A stretch of DNA of 64,000 nt from Candidatus Woesearchaeota archaeon (GTDB lineage Archaea > Nanobdellota > Nanobdellia > SCGC-AAA011-G17 > UBA489). The translations under genes and the position numbers were made by a program. Below, in pieces: positions 17,410 to 63,469 of the stretch; positions within the stretch are counted from its first letter, which is position 1; each line of letters starts with the position of its first letter. Location: positions 650,195 to 714,194 of the forward strand of contig CAYITG010000001.1 of the NCBI GenBank assembly GCA_964366415.1. Direction: 5' to 3'. Under the pieces are notes generated by a model that saw only the letters and a program-made list of their open reading frames with translations, made no database searches and was not told the DNA's origin.

Positions 17410-17410
17410 T

Positions 17411-33858: not shown

Positions 33859-34914
33859 ATGAAAAAAATCATCATCTTGATGCTGGCTGGAATTGGGGAC
33901 AGCTTGTTAGCTACACCTATGCTTACTTCCCTTCGGAAAATGTATCCTGATGCACACATTTCTGTTTTGGTTATGTATGATGCTGTCCGTGATACTCTCC
34001 TCAGAAACAAAGATATTGACGAGGTAATCTTTTTTGATTTTATGCGGCAAGGATATTGGAAATCTCTTTTCTTTGCTCTTCGCCTGAGAAAAAATCATTA
34101 TGATCTTAGTATCTTGGCTTATCCTGCAAATCGATTTCAGCACAACTTCCTCAGTTTTGTGATAGGTGCCAGGAGACGCATCGCGCACCTTTATGATGTT
34201 CATCGTTTACGATCATTAAGCTTCTTGGAAACAGAACGCCTTCCCATAAATGCACAAACCCACACCATTGATGAGAACTTAAAACTCCTCACGTTTTTAG
34301 ATCACGATGTTCCAACATCCTCACGAAAAATGACTTTTTCTTTAACTCAGGAAGAGAAAAATTTTGCTGAAAATTATTTAAAAGAACGTGCCATTACAAA
34401 ACATGATTTTATTATTGGGATCCACGCCGGATCAAGTGAATTAGCAGGAATGACTTTAAAACGTTGGCCAGCAGAAAAATTTGCCCAGCTCTGCGATCGA
34501 CTCATTGAGCAAAGAAAAGCAAAAATTCTTCTTTTTGGCGGTAACAACGAAATTGCTCTCAAGCAGGAAATTGCTGACCTTATGACACATAAACCTCTTT
34601 TTGTCAATAGCATTACTTTTTTTCAAAGTGTAGCATTAATTTCTCGATGTTCCGGATTTATATGTAATGATACTGGTCTTATGCACCTCGCCTCATTCTT
34701 TAATATTCCTACTGTTGTTGTTACTGGGCACATCAATCCTATCAAGACACAGCCACTACATCATCGTTCACGTATTCTTGTTCCTGATTTTGTTTGCAAG
34801 CCTTACCATATTGGTGAAAACTTAACTTGTCTCTATCAGGGAACTCCAAATTATTGCCTTAATAGGATTTCTGTTGATGATGCTTATCGCGCCTTTATGG
34901 GGGTACTATCATGA
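33859..34914 (+). CDS. GT9 family glycosyltransferase (heptosyltransferase-like)
   Basis: The N-terminus has LAGIGDSLLATP and the C-terminus has CNDTGLMHLASFFNIPTVVV (DTGxxHLA). Confidence 0.65.
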   Translation: MKKIIILMLAGIGDSLLATPMLTSLRKMYPDAHISVLVMYDAVRDTLLRNKDIDEVIFFDFMRQGYWKSLFFALRLRKNHYDLSILAYPANRFQHNFLSFVIGARRRIAHLYDVHRLRSLSFLETERLPINAQTHTIDENLKLLTFLDHDVPTSSRKMTFSLTQEEKNFAENYLKERAITKHDFIIGIHAGSSELAGMTLKRWPAEKFAQLCDRLIEQRKAKILLFGGNNEIALKQEIADLMTHKPLFVNSITFFQSVALISRCSGFICNDTGLMHLASFFNIPTVVVTGHINPIKTQPLHHRSRILVPDFVCKPYHIGENLTCLYQGTPNYCLNRISVDDAYRAFMGVLS

Positions 34915-38445: not shown

Positions 38446-39345
38446 ATGGCAGAGAAGATTTTAGTTGTATTACTACATGGCATTGGAGATAGTTTGATGG
38501 CGCAACCGGCGCTTCATGCTCTCAAGAAAAAATATCCTGATAGTTCTTTAACCATCATGACGATCAAAAATAATGTATTCAAGGATTTGTGGAGCATGGA
38601 TAAAACTGCTGATGAGGTATTATTTTCTTCTTTAGAACATAATCCTTCTTATGGCAATCCTTTATTCTGGATTGGAGACTATTGGACAATACGACGTGAC
38701 ATTCGGCGTGCAGTGAAGGCTCACGGATTTACGCGCGTGTATTTTGTGAAAATGTTTTTGATGTCTGCTAAGATTTATTCTTTTTTACATTTACCGCGTT
38801 ATGAAGAACATAAAACATTGAAAATTGCACGTGAACTTGATGTTGTACTCAGTGACCAACGTTATTCGCTTGCTTATCATAACGACGATCGCATGTGGGC
38901 AAAGACTTTTTTGTCTGAACGAAAGTTGGACCCAGATGTTTTAATCGGCATTCACACTAGTGGATCGCATCCATCGAAATCTTTGTCTGCTGAAACTATA
39001 AAATCTTTGGTTGAAACTCTTCGTTCTTTAGGATACCAGATTGTTGTTTTTCATAGTGCATCCTCTTATGAACGTGATAAAAAAAGCTTGCCTCCTGACG
39101 TTCCAGTTTGCATGCCTGATTCTTTACTGCATACTGCCGCTGTTGTTGATCAGTGTAAAGCTTTGATCTGTGTTGACTCTGGCATTGGGCATCTTGCAGC
39201 TGCATTGAATAAAAAAGTGTTAAGTATTTATTTTAAAAATGTGTGGATGAAGAATTCTTTAGCCTTGGGAGATCACATTGTACCTTATTTGTACACTAAG
39301 AATATTCCTCGCTTATTAGAATATGTGCAATCATTTCTTCAATAA
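38446..39345 (+). CDS. GT9 family glycosyltransferase (heptosyltransferase-like)
   Basis: It has LHGIGDSLMAQP and CVDSGIGHLAAALNKKVL. Confidence 0.55.
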   Translation: MAEKILVVLLHGIGDSLMAQPALHALKKKYPDSSLTIMTIKNNVFKDLWSMDKTADEVLFSSLEHNPSYGNPLFWIGDYWTIRRDIRRAVKAHGFTRVYFVKMFLMSAKIYSFLHLPRYEEHKTLKIARELDVVLSDQRYSLAYHNDDRMWAKTFLSERKLDPDVLIGIHTSGSHPSKSLSAETIKSLVETLRSLGYQIVVFHSASSYERDKKSLPPDVPVCMPDSLLHTAAVVDQCKALICVDSGIGHLAAALNKKVLSIYFKNVWMKNSLALGDHIVPYLYTKNIPRLLEYVQSFLQ

Positions 39346-40458
39346 TGTTCGTGCTTTTGTGATTACTTCATCTGGCGTGATTGATCGCATGCATTCGTAA
39401 CCTTTGTTGTATATACAGAAATAACGCCGACAGCCCACACACCCTTCTTCTTTCCATATATATGCGGGGCTCTTTCCTGTTGGACCCCAAAATGTTGGAA
39501 TGGTAGGACCAAATAATGTCAAGACAGGCTTGTCAAATGCTGAGGCAATATGTGTTGCTGAAGAATCAATGGTGATAAGCAGGTCTAGATTTTTTATTAA
39601 CGACATGAACTCATCGAATGTTGTCTTTCCTGTTAGATTAACTGTTCCTTTAACATTGGAGAGTTCATTGAGAATGCTTTGCACTTGGTCTCTTTCTTGC
39701 TTTACTCCCATCATGATTATTGTTGCTTTTCTTTTTTGGTAATATTCTATCACTTCTTTCCATTTTTCTTTATACCATCGTTGAGAATAATGCGCAGATG
39801 CAGCATTGATCCCTATCCAAGGCCGAGGATATTTCTTCAGTATTTTTTTTATTCTTTTTTCTGCCACTGTTGATGGAAAGAGTTCAAGATGTTTGTCTTT
39901 CGTTTCGATGCCAATACTTCTGATGACATCGAGATTATCTTCTATTTTATGTTGCTCTTTATTATTTGGAAATATTTTTTTGTTGAGAAAAAATCCTTTG
40001 CCATATGTTATTCCTGTTTTTGTGCCGCCAATCCTATACTTTACTTTTCCAAGCAATAACAATAAACTTATTTTCCATGATCCTGGATGGAGCATGATTC
40101 CCAGATCATACTTTTTTTCCCTTAGTATATCCTTTGTTCGTGAAAATGTTACGTATGGAATACACTGTTTAATGTTTTTGTTTCCTTTTAGGACATCTTC
40201 CTTTCCTTGTTTTATTAACACGTCAATTTCTGCATCTTTGAAGTGTTGCTTCAATGCTTTTAATGTAGGCGTACTAACGATGAGATCCCCATAGTTCAAT
40301 AATTCAACAACAAGAATTCTTTTAACGCTCTTAGGAAATGACTTAAACTTAAATGGATTTACTAATAAATAGATAAGATAATCTATGTTCTGCATGCTAT
40401 CTCGTATGTAGTCTTCTATTTTTTTTATTATGTAAATGCCCATAACATATCCATTCAA
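39331..40458 (-). CDS. GT9 family glycosyltransferase (heptosyltransferase-like)
   Basis: It has LNYGDLIVSTPTLKAL and TIDSSATHIASAFDKPVLTLFGPT. A C-terminal Cys cluster reads CVGCRRYFC. Confidence 0.6.
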   Translation of the reverse strand: MNGYVMGIYIIKKIEDYIRDSMQNIDYLIYLLVNPFKFKSFPKSVKRILVVELLNYGDLIVSTPTLKALKQHFKDAEIDVLIKQGKEDVLKGNKNIKQCIPYVTFSRTKDILREKKYDLGIMLHPGSWKISLLLLLGKVKYRIGGTKTGITYGKGFFLNKKIFPNNKEQHKIEDNLDVIRSIGIETKDKHLELFPSTVAEKRIKKILKKYPRPWIGINAASAHYSQRWYKEKWKEVIEYYQKRKATIIMMGVKQERDQVQSILNELSNVKGTVNLTGKTTFDEFMSLIKNLDLLITIDSSATHIASAFDKPVLTLFGPTIPTFWGPTGKSPAYIWKEEGCVGCRRYFCIYNKGYECMRSITPDEVITKARTLLKK

Positions 40459-48866: not shown

Positions 48867-49880
48867 ATGAGTACTGTTATTAAGGTATCTGTTCCTGGAC
48901 GTGTTTGCTTAGTTGGAGAACATTGTGATTATGCTAAGGGAATGTCTATTGCCTTACCACTTCAACACCATATCACTTTGTATGGAGAAAAACGCCCTGA
49001 TCAAACTGTTTTATTTCTTACTGCTATGGAAGATAATGCATATAAATTAAGTTTTCCTCTTCATGATATTTCCATACCGGATGATAATCCTTTACGTTAT
49101 TCTGCTGCTGTTGTTGATGTCATGAAAAATCGTGGTTATTCTATCGGAGGCGTTGAAGCCATAATGAAGAGCAATTTACCTTTTAAAAAAGGCTTGGCCT
49201 CTTCTGCCGCTGTTGAAGTTGCCACTGTTCGCCTTTTCGATACACTTTATCGCCTTGATTTATCTCTCGATCAGATTGCTGAAATTGCTTATGATGCAGA
49301 ACGAAATCGTCTTGGAATTGGTTGCGGCAGAATGGACCAACTTGTTGCTGCTTATGAATCTTTGATAGCGATAAATTATGAAAAAGATACACCTACTGTA
49401 ACACGATTACAACATTCTCCCGTTCCTATGTATCTTCTTGTAGGTATTCCTCTTGTTACTAAACGCGCTTTACAGCTGATGCTTACGGAATCTAATCGTG
49501 CTTATTTACACCCGCAATCGCAAACAGATCGCGACTTTGGCAGAGCACTTGATGACCTGATCCCCAATGAAGTTGTTCGCCCATTCATTGACGCAGTTCA
49601 GCAAGGTAATATTTCAGCTGTTGGTGATCTTTTCAGAAAAAACCAAGAAATTTATGATCAATATTTTGTTCCCGTCTGTGAAAGCTTTGATTCTCCCATC
49701 CTTTCTTCTTTTTTGAAAATTGCACTACAACATGGAAGCATTGGGGAGAAATGGACTGGCGCTGGAGGTTCAGGCGCTTTTATCTGTCTCGCTGAATCTG
49801 AGGAAGCAAGAATAGACCTTCAACAAGCTATAGAACGCCAATCTTCTATTGATGTTAAATTTGTAACTGCAACTCTCTAA
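48867..49880 (+). CDS. GHMP-family sugar kinase, galactokinase-like (sugar-1-kinase)
   Basis: Motif 1 PGRVCLVGEHCDY resembles the GalK signature GRVNLIGEHTDY. Motif 2 is KKGLASSAAV. Confidence 0.75.
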   Translation: MSTVIKVSVPGRVCLVGEHCDYAKGMSIALPLQHHITLYGEKRPDQTVLFLTAMEDNAYKLSFPLHDISIPDDNPLRYSAAVVDVMKNRGYSIGGVEAIMKSNLPFKKGLASSAAVEVATVRLFDTLYRLDLSLDQIAEIAYDAERNRLGIGCGRMDQLVAAYESLIAINYEKDTPTVTRLQHSPVPMYLLVGIPLVTKRALQLMLTESNRAYLHPQSQTDRDFGRALDDLIPNEVVRPFIDAVQQGNISAVGDLFRKNQEIYDQYFVPVCESFDSPILSSFLKIALQHGSIGEKWTGAGGSGAFICLAESEEARIDLQQAIERQSSIDVKFVTATL

Positions 49881-49882: not shown

Positions 49883-50848
49883 ATGACTCTTTTCCTCCTT
49901 GATTTACCGCAACAAAGAATTTCTCTTGAAGAGCTATGTTTCTCTTTAACATCCTGTCAACATACCTTTACTGAAGAAATTCGTGACACTTACCGAGAAC
50001 TTATTCAACGTTTTTATGAAGATCATCGAAAAAGCACTCCACTACAATATGACCCTGATTCTAACCCTATTTTTACCTTAGATTCTTTTTGTTCTTCTGG
50101 AAAAAGAACCTTTTCTTTAGGCAGTGTTGAATTTAAGGACTATTTTGCTTTACGCAATCTTCTTTATCGGACAAAGGAAGATGGACGTTTACTTCGACAA
50201 TTTGTTCCTTTAAGCATGACTGCTACTTTAGAAACTGCTGACCATTTTTTGGTGCTTGGACATCGCAAAGGAAATCATCTTTCTGATCGCTATTTACCCC
50301 CTGCTGGTTTTTTGCAGTATTGTTCAAATATCACTTCGGATTACTTCAGACAGAAATGCGCTGAAGAATTTTCTGAGGAGTTAGGCATAGATTTTAATGA
50401 TGTTTCCTATATTGGCCTGACAGGTGATACTCGAGATTCGTTCCTCGACACTTGTACTTTTTATGGCCAGACTTCTTTGACAAGAGCCGAAGTTCAGAAA
50501 GCTTGGGAGTCTCGCGGTGCTAAGGATGAACATTCTCATCTTATTTACATTCCTTCTTCCTTAGAAGCCATTAGTGCATTCCTCCATGGAACTTTTACTG
50601 GAGAAGTTAATCCTTCTATGAATATTCATTTTGAGAATGGTATTTGTATTTCCGGTCCTCGAGAAATTTTAGGCAAACGCTATCAACAGATTGAAAATGG
50701 TGTTGGCGCTTATGCAGCTTTCCTTTCTTTGTCTCAACCTCTTGCTGAAGTCCAGTCATTACTTCATTCCCTTGCTTCTGCAGGCATTATTGAAGGAGTT
50801 GTAATGAAAAATATTAATGATGAACAGCCCTATCTTCTTTCTTCTTAA
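49883..50848 (+). CDS. hypothetical protein (possible degenerate Nudix-like fold)
   Basis: It starts 2 nt after the kinase gene. The segment LVLGHRKG..YLPPAGFL...DYFRQKCAEEFSEELGI loosely resembles the Nudix box but lacks canonical residues. Confidence 0.35.
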   Translation: MTLFLLDLPQQRISLEELCFSLTSCQHTFTEEIRDTYRELIQRFYEDHRKSTPLQYDPDSNPIFTLDSFCSSGKRTFSLGSVEFKDYFALRNLLYRTKEDGRLLRQFVPLSMTATLETADHFLVLGHRKGNHLSDRYLPPAGFLQYCSNITSDYFRQKCAEEFSEELGIDFNDVSYIGLTGDTRDSFLDTCTFYGQTSLTRAEVQKAWESRGAKDEHSHLIYIPSSLEAISAFLHGTFTGEVNPSMNIHFENGICISGPREILGKRYQQIENGVGAYAAFLSLSQPLAEVQSLLHSLASAGIIEGVVMKNINDEQPYLLSS

Positions 50849-51620
50849 GAAATTCTTGCGCAAGTTTTATACTTTCAACATTTCCCACATCGAATATTTC
50901 TCTGTCTGTTATGTAAGCATATGCCTCTTTTCCTTTCATTAGAAACCATGGAACTATATTCCCCATATTTCCATCGTTCTTAGTTTCTTTTATATACTGC
51001 TTGATCAGTTCGCTGCATTCTTTATCAAAAATAAATGTTGGTGTGGCCGCATAAATTGATTTTGGATTTTGTGGTTTTTCTTCATATGACAGAATTTTCT
51101 GTTCTTTGTTAAATTCAGCTACGCCACGTAAACGAATGAATTCTGGCCTTTCTTTATGCACCACTATTGTTGTTTTTTTCCTTTTTTGATATGACTCAAG
51201 TACACTACCAAGATCATAATCAAATATGGTATCTCCAGCTAGAATAAGAAGGTCGTCATTCACTTTTTCCTTTTCTAAGATGTATAGCACTCCACCAAAT
51301 ACTCCTTGCCCATATGTATTGTCTGGAGACCCATCACTTATTAGTTTAATATTGAGTTTTCCCCCATACCTCTCTTTCCATTTCCTAAATTCATTTATAT
51401 TATCATTATTTACGCGTACAAAAACATCAGATATGGTTGTTTTTTCAACTTTTTTTATGATTCTCGAGAAAATTGGTTCTCCTGCTATTTTCAAGAGTGG
51501 TTTGGGGACATCAAGAAATTCTTTATACTTTTCATATTCTTTTGAATCTATTTCTTTTAATTTTTTAATATCTTCCTGAAGACGCGTTCCGTACCCTCCG
51601 GCGAGAATTATTGCTTTCAT
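50814..51620 (-). CDS. sugar-1-phosphate nucleotidyltransferase
   Basis: The N-terminus MKAIILAGGYGTRLQ is the G-x-G-T-R nucleotidyltransferase signature. The length is 268 aa. Confidence 0.75.
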   Translation of the reverse strand: MKAIILAGGYGTRLQEDIKKLKEIDSKEYEKYKEFLDVPKPLLKIAGEPIFSRIIKKVEKTTISDVFVRVNNDNINEFRKWKERYGGKLNIKLISDGSPDNTYGQGVFGGVLYILEKEKVNDDLLILAGDTIFDYDLGSVLESYQKRKKTTIVVHKERPEFIRLRGVAEFNKEQKILSYEEKPQNPKSIYAATPTFIFDKECSELIKQYIKETKNDGNMGNIVPWFLMKGKEAYAYITDREIFDVGNVESIKLAQEFLKKKEDRAVHH

Positions 51621-51644: not shown

Positions 51645-53171
51645 TTAAATGCTTTGCCCCATTGAATGTTCAATACTCTTTTTTGGATCTGTGCGATCAT
51701 GCCTCTGCAGCCCGTATCTGGTGCGTATTTTATCATCAATTTCTTGACGTAATTCAAGGAAATCTTGTGCGCTCACCTTTTCTGTTCTAACATATACTAC
51801 ATTCTCGCCGGGAGCTGTTTTGTATGGTGCTGTCTCTCTTGCAAAATCAATGGCACGCACATATAATTCTCCTTCTCCTAAAACGCGTTGGAATTCATCA
51901 CTATGCTTTCCTCTATTTGGCCTCAGACCATCATACACGCGCGATCCTGGATAGGGGGTTAAAATTGTCAAATCGAAATCCCACTTCATGTTATACTGTT
52001 GTGCAAGTTTTCCTAATCTTTCGAGGAATTTTTCTGTCATGCGAATATCGTCTACTGTTTCTGTTGGTTGCCCCATCATTGTCAACGCTTTCATTTCTAT
52101 TCCATGCTCAAAAGCCAATTTTGTAGCTTGATAGTTAATCTCTGCCGTTGTATTCTTTTTCACGTAATCTTTCAGTATTCTATCTGATCCACTTTCGAAA
52201 CCTGAGAGCACAATATGAAACCCGGCACGCTTCATCGCAGGCGCAACTTCCGGATGCCTCACAAAAAGTTCCGATTTAATAAATCCCCTATATGAGAATG
52301 GCCTCTCATCTTTTGCCATTCTTTCTTTGTTATTTCTCTCAAGAACTTCCAACAATTCCATTGTTGCTCTTGCGTCTAAGTTTAGTTCATCATCATAAAA
52401 CATGAATCCTGTTACCGAAGGAAATTTTTCATTAATGTGGTTTAGCTCTGCGACAACTCTTTCAGGGCTATATGCACGCCTTCTTCCCGTCGTTTTACTT
52501 TTTACGAAACGGTATTGAGGAATATTTCTCCCAGAACAAAAATTACAGTTAAAGGGACAACCGCGCTGAGATAGGATGCTTGTAGCTGGACCGCCATCAA
52601 TATCAAATTTTGGAGACCCATCGTCTTTGAATAAATAAGCTTGCATATCGATAAGCTCACGTGGCAAGAAAGGAAGCTTATCAAGATCATCGAATGTTCC
52701 AGAATATACCCACCTTGAGGACTGAGGTTTATTTAATCTCTTTAATGCTTCAAAGATTCCTAATTCTTCTCCTTCAATGATCTGGTCGAATATCTCCAAA
52801 GAATGGAAATTTGCATCACCTTCATATAACTCACTTTCTTTCACCATAGACTCTAATCTTCTTTTTCTTAGACTTGCAAACATTGTTGCATGCGGACCAC
52901 CAATCACTACATTGGCATGCGGATGCACTGCTTTAATTGATGAAAGTATACTTACTGCGTAACTAAACTGCGGAGATGTTGCTGTAATTCCATAAATATC
53001 AAAATTTTGTTGCGCAATTTGTTGCGCTTTGGTTTCATAGTCTCCATACCCTGCCAAATCAAAAAGCTTTACTTCATGCCCTGCTTTTTGCGCTATTCCT
53101 GCAATACTTAGCAGACCGAGTGAGAAAAATACTTTATCATCTGTAAGAAAAAATGACGGCGGATTAATCAA
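51645..53171 (-). CDS. B12-binding domain radical SAM protein
   Basis: An N-terminal B12-binding-like domain is followed by GCPFNCNFCSG (Cx3Cx2C). Confidence 0.8.
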   Translation of the reverse strand: MINPPSFFLTDDKVFFSLGLLSIAGIAQKAGHEVKLFDLAGYGDYETKAQQIAQQNFDIYGITATSPQFSYAVSILSSIKAVHPHANVVIGGPHATMFASLRKRRLESMVKESELYEGDANFHSLEIFDQIIEGEELGIFEALKRLNKPQSSRWVYSGTFDDLDKLPFLPRELIDMQAYLFKDDGSPKFDIDGGPATSILSQRGCPFNCNFCSGRNIPQYRFVKSKTTGRRRAYSPERVVAELNHINEKFPSVTGFMFYDDELNLDARATMELLEVLERNNKERMAKDERPFSYRGFIKSELFVRHPEVAPAMKRAGFHIVLSGFESGSDRILKDYVKKNTTAEINYQATKLAFEHGIEMKALTMMGQPTETVDDIRMTEKFLERLGKLAQQYNMKWDFDLTILTPYPGSRVYDGLRPNRGKHSDEFQRVLGEGELYVRAIDFARETAPYKTAPGENVVYVRTEKVSAQDFLELRQEIDDKIRTRYGLQRHDRTDPKKSIEHSMGQSI

Positions 53172-53338: not shown

Positions 53339-54706
53339 TTATTTTTTTGTTGTCAAACCGCGCTTTAGAAGGTAATCAATGACTTTTATGTCAAGGAACC
53401 TGTCTGTTCGTGTGCCGACAAAAGGAATTGCTTTTCTCATTAAAGCTGCATAAAAGTCATTATATGCAGAAAATTGTTTCCTTTTATCAAATACATACTT
53501 TTTTTTACTTTGCACATACATCGCCTCTACACTTTCATTATATGTGCCATCTGCGCATTTTATTTCGCAAGGGAATTTTCCTTCCTCTTCCAGGATTGTT
53601 ACTTTTGAAGGAAGGAGCTCTGACAATAATCTTAATACTTTATCGTTCCATCCTACCACAGGAAGAATGTCTCGCCAACATGGTTTTCCTATGTACGTTT
53701 GATCCTTGTTTTTAAGATTCATTCCATAACTTGTCATGAATCCACCTGTTGGCAGTTGGTGACGAATTAACCATTGTATATCTCTCTCAACTATCTTTTT
53801 CTCCCCGAGCAAGAAAAGCGCACGAGTAATATCGGCGCTTCCTGCAATAAATATAGGATACTTAAAACGTTTCCATCCTTTCTCCGTCTTCAAATAACCA
53901 AAATCATATCCTCCTTTTGCATTACGCATCTTCTTCAAAAATACTCCTGCTTGCTGAGCTGCTCTTAGATACTTCTTATCTTTTGTTATAGCATAGACTT
54001 TTAGTAATGCAGGAATGCATCTTGCTGTATAGATGCTGATGATATGCTTGTGCTTTTCTGTTTGATAAATGCCTCCGGCCATTGTTGTTGTGTCTTGATG
54101 CTGAAGGATATACTCTGCATTTGCAATAACTACCTCATAATATTTCTGTTCTTTGGTAAGATCATATATCATTAATAATAACTCTATGAGTGTCGCAATC
54201 TTGTTTGGAACATGAAGATTTTGTTTGTCATAATGATACTGACGGAAGATTCCTGTTTTTTTGTCATAAAGAAAATTAAAATGGTAGTTATCGAGATTCT
54301 TCTTTGCCGCCAGAAGATATTTTGTTCCTTTTTCCCTTAGGTATCTTGCCAGATATGCTAGTCCTAAGGCTGCGGCTGTATCATGCGGTGTGCTGCCTCT
54401 TCCGAGAGATGGATTCGCTTCAAAGTGTGAGTTGAGGAAGATACCATTCGACAATTGATTCTTCAGAAGATCATCTCCTGCTTGCTGAGCTAGCGCAAGG
54501 AACTTGTCATTCTTTGTTTTTTTGTGTAGTCTGAGAAATGCGTCTATTAACCCTTCATAACACCAGTTCATGCTTGGGCCGGTATAATTAAGACAATCTT
54601 GCCAGTAATGGATGACTGGCCCTGCATATCCTCCTGGTTGATGCATCGTTTTCAACCACGCTACATTTTTTGCTATAGCATCTTTGAGGGCAGTTTTTTT
54701 CTTCAT
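53339..54706 (-). CDS. hypothetical protein with QxxxGG(F/Y) repeats (alpha/alpha-toroid, prenyltransferase/terpene-cyclase-like)
   Basis: Repeated motifs include QPGGYAGP, QLSNGIF, TMAGGIYQ, NAKGGYDFG and QLPTGGFMTSYG. It has no signal peptide. Confidence 0.35.
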   Translation of the reverse strand: MKKKTALKDAIAKNVAWLKTMHQPGGYAGPVIHYWQDCLNYTGPSMNWCYEGLIDAFLRLHKKTKNDKFLALAQQAGDDLLKNQLSNGIFLNSHFEANPSLGRGSTPHDTAAALGLAYLARYLREKGTKYLLAAKKNLDNYHFNFLYDKKTGIFRQYHYDKQNLHVPNKIATLIELLLMIYDLTKEQKYYEVVIANAEYILQHQDTTTMAGGIYQTEKHKHIISIYTARCIPALLKVYAITKDKKYLRAAQQAGVFLKKMRNAKGGYDFGYLKTEKGWKRFKYPIFIAGSADITRALFLLGEKKIVERDIQWLIRHQLPTGGFMTSYGMNLKNKDQTYIGKPCWRDILPVVGWNDKVLRLLSELLPSKVTILEEEGKFPCEIKCADGTYNESVEAMYVQSKKKYVFDKRKQFSAYNDFYAALMRKAIPFVGTRTDRFLDIKVIDYLLKRGLTTKK

Positions 54707-54763
54707 TTCATGATAGTAAATCTAACAAAAGGCTTATAAAAATTTGCTTCCCTCTTCTTTTCT

Positions 54764-56884
54764 ATGAAACAGGTTTTCCGCGATCGACGGGGTAAAGTCA
54801 AAATTGAGGATCTTCCACCACCCTCATTACAAGAAGGAAGAGTCTTAGTGAAAACACATTATTCACTTATCAGCAGCGGAACTGAAACGCGGTCTCTTCG
54901 CGACTCACAACGCGGAGGCGTTGTTGAACATGCTGTGAAGAAGCGTAAACAAGTACGCGCTTTCCTTGGACATTCTTTACGCGTTGACCCTGCTTATGCA
55001 TATCGTCTCTTTAAGGGAAAAGCCCATGAGCTAGCAACGTTAGGTTATAGTTGTGTAGGAGAAGTTATTGACAAGGATCCTGCTCTGAGCGATATCAACA
55101 AAGGCGATCTTGTTGTGTGTGGCGGATACGAATATGCACACCATGCCGATATTGTTTCTGTTCCACGTAATCTTGTCTATCCTGTCCCTGCTGGTGTTGA
55201 TCTTAAAGAAGCTACATTTTCTCCTCTTGGAGGAATAGCACTACATGCCATTCGAAGAGCACAACTTTCTCTCGGTGAAAGCGTGCTTGTTGTAGGGCTG
55301 GGATTAATCGGACAATTGGCAATCCAACTTTTGCGCCTGCAGGGATGCACTGTAGTAGGCATTGATCCTTCTGCAGCGAAAACAAAAATCTCTCATGCTT
55401 TTGGGGCTAAAACCTACACTGCAAAAAAAGATTTTGCATCTTCTGTTCTTGCCTTGAATGGTGGACCTTTCGATGTTGCTCTTTTGTGCACGAAGATTGA
55501 TGATCCTGCGAACCTTGATGAAATTATTGATGTTGTTCGCAACAAAGGAAAGCTTGTTGCAATAGGAGACTTATTAGTGCCTTACCCTTTCTCGAAACTT
55601 GTGAGAAAAGAAATTGACATTTTAGTTTCTCGCTCCCATGGTCCTGGACGTTTTGACAAAGAATATGAAGAAAAAGGCAAAATTTATCCTCTTGAACATG
55701 TACGCTGGACAAGCGATAGAAACATCAATGAGATCCTTCATTTACTTAAAGAAAAGAAACTTTCTGTTCGTGAACTTATCAGCGCAGAGTTTGATATGAC
55801 TCAAGCAGAAAAAGCATATTCTTTGTTGATGAAACGACCAGATACTATTGGTGTTGTGCTTGCTTATGAAAAGAATAATCCTACACAAACAATGTATCCC
55901 GTCCTTCCGATCACTAAGAAGAAAGGAACTTTGGGCGTTGCTTTGGCTGGATTGGGTGCACATGCTCAAACTGTTTTATTACCTTATATTATGAAAGAAC
56001 CATCATTTTCTCTTCAGAATGTTGTGAGCTCAAATGGGCTCAGAGCTAAACAACTTGCCACTCTTTTCAAGGCGCGATCTTGCACTACTCGTTTTGCAGA
56101 TGCACTCACTGATCCAGAAGTTGACCTTGTTTTTATTTCCACGAAGAACAAACAACATGCAGAGATGACTGTTCAAGCTGCTGAAGCTGGAAAACATATT
56201 TATCTAGAAAAACCTATGGCCCTTACTGAAGAAGAATGCGAACGTATTGTCGATGCCGTGAAGAAACACAACATCATTTTTACTCTTGGGTTGAGTAGGC
56301 GCTTCGCTCCTCTTGTTGAAAAAGCAAAATCTTTGATGCTAGAACATCAACCTGCTGCTATTAATTATCATCTTGTTGAACAGAAGAAACAGGAAAAAGA
56401 GTGGGTTGATGAAGAGGGAGGGAGAATTGTTTACATGTTTTGCCATCTTATTGATGTAGCAACCTATCTTCTTGGCAGTGAACCAACTTCTATTTATGCA
56501 ACACGGGGACAGACCCAAGATAGTGTTGTTGCTCTTGTGACTTATGAGAATGGTTCTCTTTTAAATATTTTTTATCATATCTCTGCAGCACCATTTCATA
56601 AAGAACACATCGAGATTCATCAGGGAGACACTTCTCTTTTTATTACTGATTTTAAAGATCTTCTCATTCATGCTGGAAACAAGCAACACTCTTTATCTCT
56701 TAAACAGGCTGATAAAGGGCATACCAACCAACTCCGTGAGTTTGCTAAAGTATTGCAAGGTCAACCTGCTCCTCTTGTTACTCTGAACGACGCTGTCCGC
56801 GCAACTCTTTTCCCTTTTTATGTGATCAAAAGCCTTCATACAGGTAAGCTAGTTTCTTTTGATTGGAAACAATTTTTGAAGTGA
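54764..56884 (+). CDS. bi-domain oxidoreductase (N-terminal MDR/zinc-dehydrogenase-like plus C-terminal Gfo/Idh/MocA-like)
   Basis: The N-terminus has SLISSGTETRSL and a Rossmann motif VLVVGLGLIGQLAIQLL. The C-terminal half has LGVALAGLGAHAQTVLLPYI and ...DLVFISTKNKQHAEM. Confidence 0.7.
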   Translation: MKQVFRDRRGKVKIEDLPPPSLQEGRVLVKTHYSLISSGTETRSLRDSQRGGVVEHAVKKRKQVRAFLGHSLRVDPAYAYRLFKGKAHELATLGYSCVGEVIDKDPALSDINKGDLVVCGGYEYAHHADIVSVPRNLVYPVPAGVDLKEATFSPLGGIALHAIRRAQLSLGESVLVVGLGLIGQLAIQLLRLQGCTVVGIDPSAAKTKISHAFGAKTYTAKKDFASSVLALNGGPFDVALLCTKIDDPANLDEIIDVVRNKGKLVAIGDLLVPYPFSKLVRKEIDILVSRSHGPGRFDKEYEEKGKIYPLEHVRWTSDRNINEILHLLKEKKLSVRELISAEFDMTQAEKAYSLLMKRPDTIGVVLAYEKNNPTQTMYPVLPITKKKGTLGVALAGLGAHAQTVLLPYIMKEPSFSLQNVVSSNGLRAKQLATLFKARSCTTRFADALTDPEVDLVFISTKNKQHAEMTVQAAEAGKHIYLEKPMALTEEECERIVDAVKKHNIIFTLGLSRRFAPLVEKAKSLMLEHQPAAINYHLVEQKKQEKEWVDEEGGRIVYMFCHLIDVATYLLGSEPTSIYATRGQTQDSVVALVTYENGSLLNIFYHISAAPFHKEHIEIHQGDTSLFITDFKDLLIHAGNKQHSLSLKQADKGHTNQLREFAKVLQGQPAPLVTLNDAVRATLFPFYVIKSLHTGKLVSFDWKQFLK

Positions 56885-57942
56885 TGAATATGCATGAAAC
56901 ACTCCTTGAACGAATGAAGCATGGACTCTTAGCTTTACGACAAGAAGATGGATCTTATCGTGATGGTTCTTTAGTAGACATTAGGCCAACTGCCGAGATT
57001 GTACATGGATTATTGCGTCTTCATATAGAGGAAGGAGTGGAGCAATCTTTACGTTGGCTTTTGAGCAAACAGCACTATAATGGAAGCTGGGGCGAAGAAA
57101 TGCATCATGCAACCATACGCGAGAACACACTTGCGACAGCCGTGATTGGTGAAACTCTCCTTGCCGCGCATCGTCGTTTTCATGATAAACGATATGCCGA
57201 CGCAGCACGTAAAAGTTTTACTTTCCTTCTTTCCCAAGAAATGCAACCCGGCTCTTTTGCTAAAATACCGGAGCACAAAGAAGATATTTTGAATGTTGAT
57301 GCGGCTTGCGCTTCTTTTTTCCATGCTTTTTATCTTATCTTCAAAGAACAGCGCGCTGCTGATGCTCGCGACCGCATTTTGCGCCACCTCGAAAAAAGTC
57401 AATTAGAAGATGGCGCTTATCCCTATAGCGTTGTTGAAAAAGATTCTCCACAACAGATTCCTTTGCGAGATCCCTATTATCATGCTTTGACACTTTTTTT
57501 TATTATGAGAACACAGCAATATCCGTCGCTCTCTGTTTCGATACGTCGCGCCTTTGCGTGGCTTGATGCTCAACTTTATCGTGGGCGGTTCAGATGGGAT
57601 AATTCTGATGTTCTCTTTTCTTTGGGCAGTACGCCTGCTTATGCTTTTAGTGCTGCTTGTTTTCATGCTGCCAAGCTCTCTTCTTTACCTCTTACTTTGT
57701 CAAGGCTACATGTACTTCAACGACGCGATGGACTTTTTGACCCTTTCGAGCATGTCGGTTCTTGGCAATCTCTTCAGGGATTATATCGTGAAATTACTGG
57801 ACAATTACCTTTAGCTGCCAAGATGCAGCACATAAAAGAACGATGCAAGAGAATTGTGAAATCTCGTTCTTCTCACCCTGACCTTTTTTATCACTCTCAA
57901 ATTTTTTATGCTCTTAGCACATTACAAGGAGAACTCTTATGA
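56884..57942 (+). CDS. prenyltransferase/squalene-oxidase repeat (alpha/alpha-toroid) protein
   Basis: It has QxxDGS(W/Y) repeats: QEDGSYRD, QHYNGSWGEE, QLEDGAYPY and RRDGLFDP. The start was set at the ATG that overlaps the upstream stop (TGATG). Confidence 0.5.
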   Translation: MNMHETLLERMKHGLLALRQEDGSYRDGSLVDIRPTAEIVHGLLRLHIEEGVEQSLRWLLSKQHYNGSWGEEMHHATIRENTLATAVIGETLLAAHRRFHDKRYADAARKSFTFLLSQEMQPGSFAKIPEHKEDILNVDAACASFFHAFYLIFKEQRAADARDRILRHLEKSQLEDGAYPYSVVEKDSPQQIPLRDPYYHALTLFFIMRTQQYPSLSVSIRRAFAWLDAQLYRGRFRWDNSDVLFSLGSTPAYAFSAACFHAAKLSSLPLTLSRLHVLQRRDGLFDPFEHVGSWQSLQGLYREITGQLPLAAKMQHIKERCKRIVKSRSSHPDLFYHSQIFYALSTLQGELL

Positions 57943-59108
57943 ACATTCTTCTTCTTTCTACATCGTATTTTCCAGAGCATAATGGAGCATCATTAAGAGT
58001 TGAAGGATTATGCAAAGGGTTGAAAGCTTTGGGACATCATGTTGTTGTGATGGCACCGGGACCTTCCTTCATGAAGGAACATTTTGCCCATTGTGTTGTC
58101 TATCGTATTCCTCTTCATCGACATTTATTCTCTGCGATCTTTGAGAGTTTTACTAAGTTTCATATTTCGCGCTATTTTGCTTTTAAACATTATCTTCCTC
58201 GCATTATCATGGATGAGCATATCGAAATTATCCACACCAGACAACCTCTTGATTTATTTGCTCTTGGTTCTTATGTAAAGAAACATTTTGGACTTCGTTG
58301 GATCACAGAAGCACACAAATTCCTTAGCAGAACAGAGTATGACACCGGTCAACGTTCTTTTCTTTCCTATAAATTCCTCCTTTTTTTTGAAAAATTCTTT
58401 TTGAACAAGAGTGATGGCGTTGTTGCTCTTTCTTCATCTGGAAAAGACAGACTTTATCATGAAGGTATTCATGTTCCTCTTGCCGTTGTTGAAAATGCCT
58501 CGCATCCGCCGCATAAAAAACATCAATGTGTAAAAACAAAGAATCTCGTTTATGCAGGTACCCTTCGTGAGATTGAAGGCCTTGATGTCCTTCTTGATGC
58601 CTTCGCACTCATTCACACATCTTATCCTGATGTTAAGTTATATCTTGTAGGCGGCGGCAAAAAAGACTGGCTTGAAAAAAAGGCTCAACATCTTGGTATT
58701 TCATCTCACGTGATCTTTACTGGAGAAGTTGAACATGAACGCGTTTTTGATTATCTTGCTTCAGCATACCTTTTTGTCTACCCAAGAAAAGATGTTCCTT
58801 ACCATCACGATATTATTGGTCTTAAAATTTATGATGCTTTTGATATACATCTTCCTCTTGTCACGAGTGATGTTGGGGAACTTGGATCGCTTGTTACTAC
58901 GCACCGGCTTGGCCTTGTGTGCAAACCTGAAGATCCTCATGATTTTGCACGACAAGTGGCGAAACTTCTTGATGATAGGAAACTTTATGCTTCTCTTGTC
59001 TCTCATTTGAAACACTATCAACAGCGACATACTTGGAAATCTGTCTGTTCCCATCTTCTTCCTTTATATCCGCGCCATACTACTATGAGAACACCTAAGA
59101 ACCTTTAA
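57939..59108 (+). CDS. GT4 glycosyltransferase
   Basis: It has an N-terminal MNILLLSTSYFPEHNGASLRVEG and a C-terminal GT4-like block. Confidence 0.65.
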   Translation: MNILLLSTSYFPEHNGASLRVEGLCKGLKALGHHVVVMAPGPSFMKEHFAHCVVYRIPLHRHLFSAIFESFTKFHISRYFAFKHYLPRIIMDEHIEIIHTRQPLDLFALGSYVKKHFGLRWITEAHKFLSRTEYDTGQRSFLSYKFLLFFEKFFLNKSDGVVALSSSGKDRLYHEGIHVPLAVVENASHPPHKKHQCVKTKNLVYAGTLREIEGLDVLLDAFALIHTSYPDVKLYLVGGGKKDWLEKKAQHLGISSHVIFTGEVEHERVFDYLASAYLFVYPRKDVPYHHDIIGLKIYDAFDIHLPLVTSDVGELGSLVTTHRLGLVCKPEDPHDFARQVAKLLDDRKLYASLVSHLKHYQQRHTWKSVCSHLLPLYPRHTTMRTPKNL

Positions 59109-59134: not shown

Positions 59135-60178
59135 ATGAAACAAATAGTCAGAGTAGGAAATGCCATTGCTATTCGCGATGTACCCATTCCTCACGCTTCG
59201 CCAGGATTTATTGTAGTACGAAATTCCTATTCTTTAATCAGTACTGGTACAGAAACGAGATCTTTACGAAACTCTTCTGCTTTAGTTAAAGGCATCACAA
59301 CCATATCCAGAAAGATTTTTGCACCTCAGAAAGCATATGCTAATCTTGGATACACCTGTGCAGGTGTCATAGAAGAGATTGGAGAGGGCGTACATGGATT
59401 TGCTCTTGGTGATCGTGTTTTGTGTGTTGGCTTTGATTATGCAGTTCATGCCGAAATTGTAAAAGTCCCTGCTCCTTTAGTTTTCCATCTTCCGCAGACT
59501 ATTTCTTTTACTCATGCTCCTTTTGCTGCCCTAGGAAGTGTGGCGCTACATGCTCTTCGCAGAAGCAATATCGCTTTTGGTGAAAAAGCCCTCGTGATAG
59601 GATTGGGACTTACTGGACAACTCTTAGTCAGACTTTTACTGCTTAATGGCTGCTCTGTTATTGGTGTTGATCCTAATGATTATAAGATTACATTAGCGCA
59701 AAAAGCTGGCGGAGAGTATATTAAAGGAAAACGTGACTTTGCTCAAACTGTTCTGGATAAAACAGGACATGGTGTTGATGTTGCTTTTGTGTGCACCGAT
59801 ATGCACGACAACGAAAATCTTGAGGAAATTATGACTACGATACGTGATAGAGGAAAACTTGTTGCTGTAGCTAACATCACTTGTTCTTTGCCCTTCCCAC
59901 TTTTTTTTCGTAAGGAACTTGACCTTATTGTATCGCGATCCTTTGGCCCTGGACGTTTTGACAAAGAATATGAGGAAAAAGGCATTGATTATCCTTTAGG
60001 ATATGTGAGATGGACTGAACGGAGAAACATCGAAGAAGTTCTTCGTCTTCTTGGCGAGCAGAAACTTGTTGTTGATCCTTTGATCAGTGCAGAGTATCCT
60101 ATCCAACATGCTCAACAAGCATATCATTCCCTGCTTGGAAGAACTAGGCCCGTGGCGCTATTATTAAAATATTCTTAG
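59135..60178 (+). CDS. MDR (zinc-binding alcohol dehydrogenase-like) oxidoreductase, paralog of the N-terminal half of 54764..56884
   Basis: The N-terminus SYSLISTGTETRSL and the Rossmann motif LVIGLGLTGQLLVRLL are shared with the bi-domain enzyme. The C-terminus has RSFGPGRFDKEYEEKG, as in its paralog. Confidence 0.7.
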   Translation: MKQIVRVGNAIAIRDVPIPHASPGFIVVRNSYSLISTGTETRSLRNSSALVKGITTISRKIFAPQKAYANLGYTCAGVIEEIGEGVHGFALGDRVLCVGFDYAVHAEIVKVPAPLVFHLPQTISFTHAPFAALGSVALHALRRSNIAFGEKALVIGLGLTGQLLVRLLLLNGCSVIGVDPNDYKITLAQKAGGEYIKGKRDFAQTVLDKTGHGVDVAFVCTDMHDNENLEEIMTTIRDRGKLVAVANITCSLPFPLFFRKELDLIVSRSFGPGRFDKEYEEKGIDYPLGYVRWTERRNIEEVLRLLGEQKLVVDPLISAEYPIQHAQQAYHSLLGRTRPVALLLKYS

Positions 60179-61791
60179 CTGCTTTCTATAAGGCTTTTTA
60201 TGTTTGGCACTGTCTGTATTGTTTCTGGAGATTTTTCGATTGCTTCTTCGTGAATATGACCATCATGTGCTTTGAGTTTGATCATTGTTTTTCTGTAAAG
60301 ACGAAGACCATGGTTCTTTGCAAGACGCGTCATGAAAAATGGAAGTAATGATAATCCTTTCAGCTTCTTCGTTGCGCTTGATGAGAGTTTCCATCCTTTG
60401 TTTAATTCTTCAAGAAACATTTTCAAATCTTTCTTCGATTTAATAGTGAAATGGTAAGGAGTATAATCATTTTTGAACAGATAAAAATAATCCCCCTTAT
60501 CTTGAAGATCAAATAATCTTCCTAATGCAAACCTCATGATAAATCTACGCGAGTATTCTCGCATATCTTTCTCTGGGAGATTGCTGTTTTGGAATCTTGG
60601 CACAGGAAAGCCGCTAAAGTTACGCTTATCTGCCTGCGCCCATGAGAAATCTTTTGGGATATACCCTTGAAGGATTGCCATATCGTACAGTGCTGTGCCA
60701 GGTATAGCATCGGTGAGCGTGAATGTGACTGCATCTCCTCGTAACTGGAAAGCCAGATCAAATGTTTCTTGAAGTGTTTCTTTAGTTTCACCAGGATGTC
60801 CAATCATAAAAAAGGTTCCTACTCCTATGCCTGCTTCTTTTGCCAATTTAATGGCATTAATCACCATAGATTTCACAATGCCTTTGCTGATAGTTTTCAT
60901 GAGCCCCTCATTTCCTGTTTCTATTCCAAATTCAATCAGCCTGCATCCTGTGCGTTTCATGATGGCAAGGATATCTTTGTCTACCAGATTAACACGAGTA
61001 AGGCATTCCCATTCGACGTTAAGTTTTCTCCTTTCCATCTCCAACATCACTGCCTTTGCCCATTCTTTGTCTGCCGTGAAGACGTCATCTTTCATGTGAA
61101 TTACTTTTTTTCCATACCTTGTGACCAACAATTCTATCTCGTCAACTACTTTTATCGGATCTCGCGTGCGTAATTTTCTTTTCCAAAATTGAGGTGATCC
61201 ACAGAAATTACAGCTATATGGGCATCCTCTTGTCCCCATGATTCCATAATATCTATATTGTGCTGTTGGAAAGAGATCATATGCTGGCATAGGGATATTT
61301 GTAATATCCATGAATTCACGATCTGGATTGCACACGATATTTCCTTTCTTGTCTCTATATGACACTCCTTTCACATTGTTTAGACTTTTTCCCTTTTCAA
61401 ATTGCCCTATAATTTCGGCCATTGTTTCTTCTGCTTCTCCTCGTACAATGAGATCAATCCAGGGAATATGCTGCAATGTGTCCTTATCCATGAATGTTGT
61501 GTGCTGGCCTCCAAAAATTACATATGCGCCGGTTTCTTTTGCCATCTTAGCGAGGTCAAATCCATCAAAACGGTTGTAACTGAACGCAGAAATGCACACT
61601 ATATCTGGCTTTTTTGCTTTTAATGCGTTTTCTGCTTCTTGTTTGGTTAATTTCAATACGTCTAAATCAAACACTTCTTGCTCAATATCCGGATAGCGCT
61701 CTTTCAAATAACTTGCAATAAACCCTATCCCCAAAGGTGGTTCATACATTTCTCCTGAAAGGAACGGACGCATATAGATAACTTTCATCAT
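60175..61791 (-). CDS. B12-binding domain radical SAM protein
   Basis: An N-terminal B12-binding-like domain is followed by GCPYSCNFCGS (Cx3Cx2C). Confidence 0.8.
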   Translation of the reverse strand: MMKVIYMRPFLSGEMYEPPLGIGFIASYLKERYPDIEQEVFDLDVLKLTKQEAENALKAKKPDIVCISAFSYNRFDGFDLAKMAKETGAYVIFGGQHTTFMDKDTLQHIPWIDLIVRGEAEETMAEIIGQFEKGKSLNNVKGVSYRDKKGNIVCNPDREFMDITNIPMPAYDLFPTAQYRYYGIMGTRGCPYSCNFCGSPQFWKRKLRTRDPIKVVDEIELLVTRYGKKVIHMKDDVFTADKEWAKAVMLEMERRKLNVEWECLTRVNLVDKDILAIMKRTGCRLIEFGIETGNEGLMKTISKGIVKSMVINAIKLAKEAGIGVGTFFMIGHPGETKETLQETFDLAFQLRGDAVTFTLTDAIPGTALYDMAILQGYIPKDFSWAQADKRNFSGFPVPRFQNSNLPEKDMREYSRRFIMRFALGRLFDLQDKGDYFYLFKNDYTPYHFTIKSKKDLKMFLEELNKGWKLSSSATKKLKGLSLLPFFMTRLAKNHGLRLYRKTMIKLKAHDGHIHEEAIEKSPETIQTVPNIKSLIESS

Positions 61792-63070: not shown

Positions 63071-63469
63071 TTATTCTTGAATGTATTCCTGGCCCGTTGC
63101 AAGCGCCATCTCTGCCTTTTTCAGTTCTTTACCTAAATATGCTGCGTGATCAAGCCTGGTGATATATTTTCTTTCATTTAACATGAAATAATAGATCTGT
63201 TGTGCAATTTTTCCACGAAATTCCTCTACAAGCTGATTTTGGTAATTACATATGCCGGCAATAATCTCTTTGCTCTCTCTGTCGATGTCAACTAAGATGT
63301 AGCAACTAGGATCTTGGTGATAATCCCGAATGTGGTCATATTCTGGGCATTGCGTTGATTTAAATTCTGAAACTTTTTTTATACTTTTTGTCCAGCTTTT
63401 TCCTTTTTCTATATTTTTCTTTAGTTCTTCTTCATTTTTATAATTTGGATTTGTCATCTTTGGAGACAT
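63071..63469 (-). CDS. small hypothetical protein
   Basis: ORF of 132 aa with no recognisable motifs. Confidence 0.4.
   Translation of the reverse strand: MSPKMTNPNYKNEEELKKNIEKGKSWTKSIKKVSEFKSTQCPEYDHIRDYHQDPSCYILVDIDRESKEIIAGICNYQNQLVEEFRGKIAQQIYYFMLNERKYITRLDHAAYLGKELKKAEMALATGQEYIQE

Follow-up and report, generated by a model that had tools for sequence, protein, structure and literature searches.

Why would two soluble barrel proteins stand on either side of a two-domain oxidoreductase in an archaeal glycosylation cluster? The question is raised by a 64,000-nucleotide stretch of a Candidatus Woesearchaeota archaeon genome (GenBank assembly GCA_964366415.1, contig CAYITG010000001.1, forward-strand positions 650,195 to 714,194). 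We call this whole stretch the window and count positions from its first letter; genes of the window are labelled A to J, other loci L001 to L028, and relatives of A carry P-numbers. Gene A (53339..54706, minus strand) encodes a 455-residue protein and gene C (56884..57942, plus strand) a 352-residue protein of a rare family, both cytoplasmic (alpha/alpha)6-barrel proteins. Between them, gene B (54764..56884, plus strand) encodes a 706-residue NAD(P) oxidoreductase, in which a medium-chain dehydrogenase/reductase (MDR) domain (residues ~1-375) is followed by a Gfo/Idh/MocA (GFO) domain (residues ~376-706). Our analysis suggests that A and C most likely reshape a sugar together with this NAD-dependent oxidoreductase. 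More specifically, and with a confidence that stays somewhat short of even, we propose that they are soluble six-hairpin enzymes, of the (alpha/alpha)6 class, that modify carbohydrates and act with B in a conserved sugar-tailoring block of an AglB-anchored surface-glycan/N-glycosylation island.

Two related families of cytoplasmic barrel proteins

A preliminary description of this DNA had taken A and C for alpha/alpha toroids that lack signal peptides, and both points hold. Structure models built from family alignments reached predicted local distance difference test (pLDDT) values of 95.5 for A and 93.0 for C, and both are twelve-helix (alpha/alpha)6 barrels; that of A carries in addition a four-strand C-terminal beta unit (380-407) and two terminal helices. 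The models thus confirm the toroid fold, and comparison of predicted folds does not choose the subfamily: single-domain class II terpene cyclases head the Foldseek list for C (8paj/8pak, template-modelling score 0.66, 16-18% identity), and the six-hairpin transaldolase AprG is present in the structural match lists of both proteins. No segment of A or C is hydrophobic enough for a signal peptide or membrane helix, the maximum of a 19-residue Kyte-Doolittle window being 1.48 for A and 1.55 for C.

Repeated Q-x-x-(D/N)-G or GG(F/Y) motifs had also been claimed for both proteins. The repeats are real, and looser than described. The strict form Q-x-x-[DN]-G-[SGA]-[WYF] occurs twice in C (QHYNGSW at 63, QLEDGAY at 173; shuffle expectation ~0.00) and not at all in the sequence of A. 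A relaxed form, Q-x(1-6)-G-[GSA]?-[WYF], occurs five times in C, against 0.70 expected from shuffles (P = 0.0015), and GG[FYI] occurs four times in A (positions 25, 211, 265 and 321), against 0.32 expected and a count that none of 2000 shuffles reached. Read against the models, the motif period of ~55-60 residues would match the loops found after alternate helices in the predicted barrels.

An important point missed by the preliminary description is that, by profile comparison, A and C are homologous to each other as distant paralogues. Aligned with hhalign, the two family profiles match with 98% probability (E = 1e-13) over 282 columns, and the invariant asparagines of the two families, N168 of A and N137 of C, fall in the same column. 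The families differ greatly in size. A has 102 detectable relatives, of which those with a named source come mostly from DPANN lineages (Nanoarchaeota, Diapherotrites, Micrarchaeota, Iainarchaeum) and in a few cases from bacteria; C yielded two relatives in a word-indexed search and 57 when HMMER was run exhaustively over 1.84 billion representatives. One A-family barrel (P0098, at L025:7500-9800) is fused to Polysacc_deac_1 and DUF2334 domains in a 766-residue protein, within a glycan cluster of high GC content (62%), probably bacterial, where a sulfotransferase is encoded too.

Conservation within the families points to an active site. The A family, with more than 20 nearly invariant polar residues, conserves H33, W35, W48, Y50, E51, F95, E96, N98, H108, N168, K169, Q215, Y226, R229, C230, D292, D346, W353, D355, K356 and R359; among its carboxylates D346 and D355 are invariant, and E51 and E96 are kept at 96-97%. 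The C family has few invariant residues. It conserves Q63, W69, E71/72, T85, K127, N137, Y181, Y199, W226 and W238, of which N137 and Y181 are invariant and K127, Y199 and E71/72 are kept at 94% or more. E71/72 is its only carboxylate position at 90% or more, E119 and D134 reaching ~81%; the alignment holds no Asp, His or Cys at 90% or more and no His column even at 80%. On the models, the conserved polar and aromatic residues of both proteins map to the long loops and to the N-termini of every second helix (in A the helices that begin at 49, 108, 167, 224, 290 and 351), the face on which six-hairpin enzymes bind substrate and place their active site. They are therefore likely to form an active site at the predicted barrel mouth. 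Positions 47 and 49 distinguish a sub-lineage of A: Asp occupies position 47 in 76 of the 82 family members, nearly all of these with Arg or Lys at 49, and the window protein and its closest relatives have N47/C49 (G47/G49 in P0002). In this N47/C49 sub-lineage, the window gene and those of the P0002, P0004 and P0006 loci adjoin B, and C and D follow wherever the contig extends.

A conserved block around a bi-domain oxidoreductase

The preliminary description had placed a fused MDR and Gfo/Idh/MocA oxidoreductase between A and C, with a stand-alone copy of the MDR half nearby, and domain searches agree. Pfam finds ADH_zinc_N at residues 182-297 of B and the GFO_IDH_MocA N- and C-terminal domains at 391-662 (GFO_IDH_MocA_C/C3). 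Dinucleotide motifs occur in both halves, GLGLIG (GxGxxG) in the MDR half and GLGAHA (GxGxxG/A) in the GFO half, and the latter keeps an EKP motif. The stand-alone copy, gene E (59135..60178, plus strand; 347 residues; Pfam ADH_zinc_N and ADH_N), matches residues 1-368 of B along its full length with 43% identity (E = 6e-101). Zinc-dependent MDRs carry CGxD and GHE zinc-ligand motifs; in both MDR copies these are replaced, by SGTE at the CGxD position and by GYS or GYT at the GHE position, so that B and E are probably zinc-independent. For the GFO half of B the best-scoring models are inositol, levoglucosan and UDP-GlcNAc 3-dehydrogenases. It is 28-39% identical to the GFO partners found at other C loci, and no similarity was detected to the other GFO gene of the window.

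The three genes belong to a block of ten whose conservation is a second point that the preliminary description had missed. The block runs in the order GHMP kinase (J), a protein without family assignment (I), NTP-transferase (H), B12-binding radical S-adenosylmethionine (SAM) protein (G) and A, followed across the A/B boundary by MDR-GFO (B), C, a GT4 glycosyltransferase (D), MDR (E) and a further B12-binding radical SAM protein (F). L026 has the complete arrangement, J-I-H-G-A then B-C-D-E-F; L027 has G-A then B-C-D-E-F, L028 has B then A-G, and L009 has A then C-D-GFO-GT4. A of the window-type sub-lineage is conserved at 57-60% identity, and at 57-58% between the window and L026 or L027. C is the most divergent member of the block: L026 and L027 differ from the window far more in C (33-35% identity) than in D (44-48%), E (54-59%), F (62-77%) or G (71%). 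Orthologues of G, at 71% identity, adjoin the A homologues of L026, L027 and L028, and L026 keeps H (61%) and I (54%) in the same positions and also J (51%). Orthologues of F stand beside the module in L008, L012 (58%), L013, L026 (62%) and L027 (77%).

To follow C more widely, we scanned metagenomes with a ten-sequence sub-alignment, which gave 15 further loci in addition to L006 and L007, and found the neighbouring genes by tblastn with the window proteins. The most constant neighbour of C homologues is the GT4 gene: a D-type GT4 (33-51% identity) directly adjoins C in nine loci (L007, L008, L009, L010/11, L012, L014, L017, L026 and L027). B-type GFO/MDR genes accompany C in 11 of the 13 distinct loci that have flanking sequence, across 27-61% GC. 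The bi-domain form adjoins C in L006, L012, L013, L018, L026 and L027 and runs off the contig in L020 and L015; L009 has a B-type GFO alone, without the MDR fusion. Both gene orders occur, B-C in the window, L012, L013, L026 and L027, and C-B in L006, L018 and L020. The stop and start of the two genes overlap or nearly abut in the window, L006, L013 and L018.

Two further associations bear on the substrate. About 1.4 kb from the C homologue of L010 lies a gene (L010:3208-5598, minus strand) for a 796-residue protein in which a Polysacc_synt (Wzx-like) flippase carries a C-terminal B-type Gfo/Idh/MocA domain; the same gene occurs in L011, so that the fusion is seen in two independent assemblies. 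This fusion places the oxidoreductase at the lipid-linked-glycan and membrane step. In addition, a UDP-sugar 6-dehydrogenase is encoded close to C in 8 of the 13 loci (L006, L009, L010/11, L013, L015, L019, L020 and L021), together with a WecB-like 2-epimerase in L006 and L021, and near the A homologue of L024. None was found in the 64-kb window or near C in L012, L018, L026 and L027. The GHMP kinase and NTP-transferase are limited to the window-type sub-lineage and are absent from the other C loci.

The wider A family (L001, L002, L003, L023, L024 and L025) always sits among glycosyltransferases, flippases, methyltransferases and radical SAM genes, in L001 and L002 within 10 kb of STT3/AglB, and at these six loci no B or C is its neighbour. 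In L002, L023 and L024, and partly in L001 (loci of Diapherotrites/Iainarchaeia type), three proteins without Pfam match surround the A homologue; they are ~270, 442 and 490-509 residues long, are mutually 41-57% identical, and have no counterpart in the window. Overall, the fold, the homology of A and C, their cytoplasmic location, the synteny and the identities of the partner genes are established here.

The remaining genes of the block fit a carbohydrate context. D (57939..59108, plus strand), which overlaps the stop of C, matches Pfam Glycos_transf_1 and Glyco_transf_4. F (60175..61791, minus strand), convergent with E, and G (51645..53171, minus strand), directly downstream of A, both match Pfam B12-binding and Radical_SAM. 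H (50814..51620, minus strand) is a sugar-1-phosphate nucleotidylyltransferase by its Pfam NTP_transferase match, with weak NCBIfam matches to AglF, RmlA and GlgC types. J (48867..49880, plus strand) is a galactokinase-like GHMP sugar kinase (Pfam GHMP_kinases_N and GalKase_gal_bdg) that scores 125 bits against the NCBIfam galactokinase model, under its cut-off. I (49883..50848, plus strand; 321 residues), which is conserved within the block, gave no match in Pfam and NCBIfam scans; lying between the kinase and the NTP-transferase, it shows by eye a Nudix-like stretch, CAEEFSEELGI.

The gene boundaries at the centre of the block are tight. The TGA stop of B and the ATG of C overlap by one base. 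The longest open reading frame (ORF) of C starts at a TTG at 56863; the ATG at 56884, which we adopted, gives a 352-residue product identical to the annotated protein of a 'Nanoarchaeota archaeon' metagenome-assembled genome. A and B are divergent and separated by a 57-nucleotide spacer (54707..54763). This spacer contains a TTATAAAA box ~25 nucleotides upstream of the B ATG, which would fit both an archaeal TATA box and a near-leaderless transcript.

The whole window is one large glycosylation island headed by an S-layer protein (7958..10639) and AglB/STT3 (17354..20029). It also encodes a Glycos_transf_4 initiating enzyme, two Polysacc_synt flippases, more than ten glycosyltransferases (of GT2, GT4 and GT9 types), two PMT_2 membrane proteins, methyltransferases, a carbamoyltransferase, a short-chain dehydrogenase/reductase (SDR) and the second GFO gene. 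Its four B12-binding radical SAM genes (21731..23299, 23354..24772, 51645..53171 and 60175..61791) and a PterinBD-DUF4346 protein (63071..63469), whose counterpart stands beside radical SAM and GT2 genes in L028, make up a corrinoid-dependent enzyme set that is unexpected in a small DPANN genome. Three of the transferase genes belong to the GT9 'heptosyltransferase' family (33859..34914, 38446..39345 and 39331..40458), here in an archaeal island. The carbamoyltransferase lies at 32098..33858, and the module of L009 is likewise followed by one. Upstream of the S-layer gene, positions 1..7283 hold several large ORFs without Pfam match, for example 1827..5282 (1151 residues), and two ORFs of ~200 residues at 11167..12368 are likewise without one. 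Scans of the window for Rfam families and tRNAs found no RNA gene.

A putative tailoring route and its rivals

These data suggest how A, B and C might work together, although what they catalyse, in which order and on which substrate is inferred. With NAD(P)+, the GFO domain of B would first turn one hydroxyl group on the target sugar into a carbonyl. The barrel protein, C and in the window-type sub-lineage also A, would then carry out acid/base (enolate) chemistry at the neighbouring, now acidic carbon, using Tyr/Asn/Lys/Glu (C) or His/Tyr/Arg/Asn-Lys/Asp (A) at the predicted barrel mouth; the outcome would be epimerisation or isomerisation, or possibly a beta-elimination or aldol-type step. 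Finally, a zinc-less MDR domain, either the N-terminal half of B or E, would reduce the product. We consider this the simplest scheme for the coupling of C to one particular oxidoreductase and one particular GT4, the uronic-acid-forming dehydrogenase that is often close by, the flippase fusion of one lineage, the types of barrel residue and the presence of two NAD domains from different classes. The enzymes RmlB, RmlC and RmlD divide their labour in a comparable way. The target is probably the sugar added by the adjacent GT4, and in most related loci it would probably be a hexuronic acid, handled at the membrane on the dolichyl-phosphate-linked glycan before flipping. The B12-binding radical SAM enzymes may add further (methyl) decoration.

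How do the roles offered in the preliminary description look in this light? Between its two suggestions for the barrels, glycan processing fits better, in view of the AglB/S-layer island and of partners of C that include a GT4, UDP-sugar 6-dehydrogenase and a flippase-fused GFO, and nothing supports binding of the polyprenyl carrier. Amino and uronic sugars had been offered among the products of the oxidoreductases. An amino sugar is unlikely, because no aminotransferase is conserved with the module, and a WbpB-like synthesis by the GFO domain was set aside on the same ground, from the other loci. As for uronic sugars, wherever a uronic acid is implicated there is a UDP-sugar 6-dehydrogenase distinct from these oxidoreductases.

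Several points weigh against the proposal that A and C act with B on a lipid-linked sugar. With no 6-dehydrogenase in the 64 kb of the window or near C in L012, L026 and L027, a uronic acid substrate is doubtful for the window lineage; we dropped it for the window and keep it as a tendency of the family. The GHMP kinase and NTP-transferase, taken with the usual substrates of MDR, GFO and N-acylglucosamine 2-epimerase (AGE) enzymes, fit chemistry on free or nucleotide sugars at least as well. The A homologues outside the window-type sub-lineage, which lack B and C, imply that A is independent of the oxidoreductase. C5-epimerisation of a uronate needs no oxidation, so that the links to the oxidoreductase and to uronate may reflect separate steps. 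We infer the clustering of conserved residues in one pocket from secondary structure only, and it is terpene cyclases that top the Foldseek list for C.

What else might the barrels do? A possible, if doubtful, alternative is that A, C or both are stand-alone hexuronyl epimerases working on the dolichyl-phosphate-linked oligosaccharide like the haloarchaeal proteins Agl32 and AglQ, with B and E engaged in unrelated tailoring. The frequent 6-dehydrogenases, near C and in L024 near A, argue for it, and so do the conserved residues, as uronate lyases and epimerases use Tyr/Asn/Lys- and His/Tyr/Arg/Asn-type residues such as those of C and A, respectively. The commonest weak Pfam matches of the A family (Pec_lyase, Pectate_lyase_2, GH88 and C5-epim_C) are moreover all to uronate-acting families. 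These matches, however, come largely from the generic hairpin motif. Of all Pfam and NCBIfam matches of A and C, only one rises above its family cut-off, a marginal hit of 44 residues between A and Pectate_lyase_2; the matches are scattered across the six-hairpin clan. In addition, A and C lie outside the AglQ family, the window has no 6-dehydrogenase, and the tight coupling of C to B in both gene orders would be left unexplained. Rather unlikely, in our estimate, is that the block serves to produce an unusual activated monosaccharide ahead of its transfer, with MDR/GFO dehydrogenases and AGE-like barrel isomerases or epimerases converting a free sugar, polyol or nucleotide sugar, the kinase and NTP-transferase activating it and the GT4 transferring it. 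AGE enzymes, MDR polyol dehydrogenases, GFO proteins, GHMP anomeric kinases and NTP-transferases usually act on free sugars or sugar phosphates, all the components are present and syntenic in the window and L026, and the best models for the GFO half of B are of the fitting kind. The kinase and NTP-transferase nevertheless occur only in the window-type sub-lineage, C does not conserve the two catalytic histidines of AGE, and the flippase-GFO fusion points to a lipid-linked stage.

The other readings are less likely than these two, which we regard as viable. That A, C or both are glycoside hydrolases or lyases (GH76-, GH8-, GH88- or PL-like) and serve to trim, edit or recycle the glycan, or the lipid-linked form that precedes it, seems unlikely: the A-family profile does match GH76 chains (E = 3e-6), A keeps the carboxylates listed above, and BcsZ, AlgL and PssZ, encoded in bacterial exopolysaccharide operons, offer a parallel, but such housekeeping glycanases are secreted and A and C are cytoplasmic. 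The C family keeps one carboxylate position at 90% or more, the sequence matches span a single hairpin turn motif, and degradation would leave the obligate oxidoreductase and GT4 partners unexplained. We give very little weight to a terpene-cyclase-like or prenyl-binding function, in which C (and A) would act on or hold the polyprenyl or dolichyl carrier. Besides the Foldseek result and the QW-like repeats, it draws on the match of the C-family profile to squalene-hopene cyclase (E = 1e-17) and on SQHop_cyclase_C, the commonest weak Pfam match of the C family (20 of 38 members); yet the former falls on the repeated QW hairpin (query 9-79) rather than on catalytic regions, as do the sequence matches generally, and profile matches of A and C to sequences of known structure span one or two hairpins only. 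DxDD and DDxxD are absent, no Asp, His or Cys reaches 90% in the C family, the conserved neighbours are all sugar enzymes, and neither A nor C shows a signal for membrane association. Scarcely more credible is a non-catalytic role, in which the barrels would serve as scaffolds or specificity subunits and bring B and the GT4 to the glycan as it grows. C does diverge much faster than D, E, F and G and has few invariant residues, as a scaffold might, but the nearly invariant polar residues of the A family, and the asparagine, tyrosines, lysine and glutamate that C keeps at typical six-hairpin active-site positions, speak for catalysis.

The proposal that the barrels and B tailor a sugar together has two more specific forms, which we regard as speculative and probably wrong in this detail. 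B and one or two barrels might oxidise, rearrange and reduce, and so edit, a sugar within the dolichyl-phosphate-linked glycan at the flippase; or AprG-like carbon-carbon chemistry of the barrel on the carbonyl that the oxidoreductase makes, with the two B12-binding radical SAM enzymes, might yield a branched or higher-carbon sugar of a kind not described in archaeal N-glycans. Either would mean a new enzymatic logic of post-assembly glycan editing, apparently widespread in DPANN archaea.

In summary, these results confirm a conserved, uncharacterised module that most likely tailors a sugar. Its fold and general role are unsurprising; what stands out is the flippase fusion, together with two barrel families that lack annotation and pair obligately with a widespread 'bi-domain oxidoreductase'. 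To our knowledge, the biosynthesis of many sugars of archaeal N-glycans has not been worked out, and AglQ and Agl32 are the only soluble barrel enzymes that we know to be tied to the editing of lipid-linked glycans so far. The present analysis defines two further barrel families, unannotated and related to each other, one so rare that no more than 57 relatives could be detected in 1.84 billion representative proteins, and a portable module of barrel protein, bi-domain NAD oxidoreductase and GT4 that recurs in very different genomes. If our proposal is right, it would offer a role for the widespread and uncharacterised bi-domain oxidoreductase genes, widen the chemistry known for six-hairpin enzymes and open a way to study the surface glycans of DPANN archaea, organisms that rely on cell-cell contact with a host. 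Should A and C prove to be ordinary epimerases, the gain would be a useful annotation and not much beyond it.

Comparison with known systems

Class II terpene cyclases (the myxobacterial 'SHC' 8paj/8pak, drimenyl diphosphate synthase and MstE) share with A and C the barrel and QW-like repeats. They differ in their catalytic motifs: A and C contain neither DxDD nor DDxxD, D346 and D355 of A do not stand in a DxDD context, and the genomic partners of C are all carbohydrate enzymes. We rejected a terpene cyclase assignment for the lack of these motifs and of any Asp at 90% or more in the C family. A prenyltransferase or LanC assignment was rejected as well, as A and C have no Cys/His zinc site; the A family has a single conserved cysteine, C230 (in the context ARC), and no second one, in the C family neither Cys nor His is conserved, and all LANC_like and Prenyltrans Pfam matches fall under cut-off.

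Glycosidases of the GH76, GH8 and GH88-GH105 families differ from A and C, which are cytoplasmic, stand in a biosynthetic context, match them over the generic hairpin motif and show no demonstrable conservation of the paired catalytic carboxylates. The single E71/72 position that C keeps argues against a two-carboxylate mechanism; the A family keeps D346, D355, E51, E96 and D292, which may or may not be equivalent to glycosidase catalytic residues. Heparinase II/III-like and GlcE-type enzymes combine a toroid with a large beta-sandwich and a Tyr/His(/Glu) set, a combination that A and C do not have. In the literature we found no characterisation of bi-domain oxidoreductase clusters or of heparinase II/III with Gfo/Idh/MocA clusters, in line with the preliminary view that the combination is uncharacterised. 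AprG, from the biosynthesis of the apramycin octose (PDB 9lfi, 9c95), is similar at the level of fold only (11-13% identity); it is bacterial and belongs to secondary metabolism, and there is no sign here of carbon-carbon bond formation.

Closer in kind is the AGE superfamily (N-acylglucosamine 2-epimerase, cellobiose 2-epimerase, mannose isomerase and the sulfoquinovose isomerase YihS), cytoplasmic (alpha/alpha)6 barrels that perform acid/base chemistry beside a carbonyl, as A and C may do. The barrels of A and C come closest in fold to cellobiose and N-acylglucosamine 2-epimerases, except that Foldseek ranks terpene cyclases first for C. Identity, however, is ~7-15%, and Pfam GlcNAc_2-epim matches weakly in 6 of 82 A-family members and in none of the C family. 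AGE enzymes, which act on free reducing sugars, have a catalytic His pair with Glu/Arg on inner helices; C has no conserved His, and H33 and H108 of A lie on the first and second hairpins, those of AGE on the fourth and sixth (PMC13308652).

The nearest comparison is with Agl32 of Hbt. salinarum (VNG1058H) and AglQ of Hfx. volcanii, soluble all-alpha proteins of aglB clusters whose best structural match is cellobiose 2-epimerase 5ZIG and which epimerise or isomerise a uronic acid of the dolichyl-phosphate-linked glycan (PMC12624080, PMC13308652, PMC3827465). AglQ is a predicted isomerase required between the third and fourth sugars (PMC3827465). To compare the families directly, we searched genomes with the published aglQ primer, which led to an orthologue of AglQ, and assembled a profile of its family from 40 sequences; the orthologue gave no NCBIfam match, NCBIfam having no AglQ model. 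In hhalign this profile matched C with 92% probability over 115 shifted columns and A with 76% over 83 columns. Because these matches are partial and shifted, and the invariant residues differ, we rejected membership of A and C in the AglQ/Agl32 family. Agl32 and AglQ have, by their published description, no obligatory MDR-GFO partner, and A differs further by its C-terminal beta/helical extension. The likeness lies in a soluble, single-domain, all-alpha barrel of ~370 residues in which the AGE catalytic residues are not conserved, encoded in an aglB-anchored cluster with glycosyltransferases, a flippase and often a UDP-sugar dehydrogenase. A and C, without transmembrane segment or signal peptide and in an island with AglB and an S-layer protein, conform to this pattern; Agl32 and AglQ act on their sugar once it is part of the dolichyl-phosphate-linked glycan, which would be a further likeness if it holds for A and C. 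We therefore regard A and C as analogous in kind to AglQ and Agl32 and as members of the same fold superfamily, and these epimerases, missed by the preliminary description, are by analogy their closest functional precedent.

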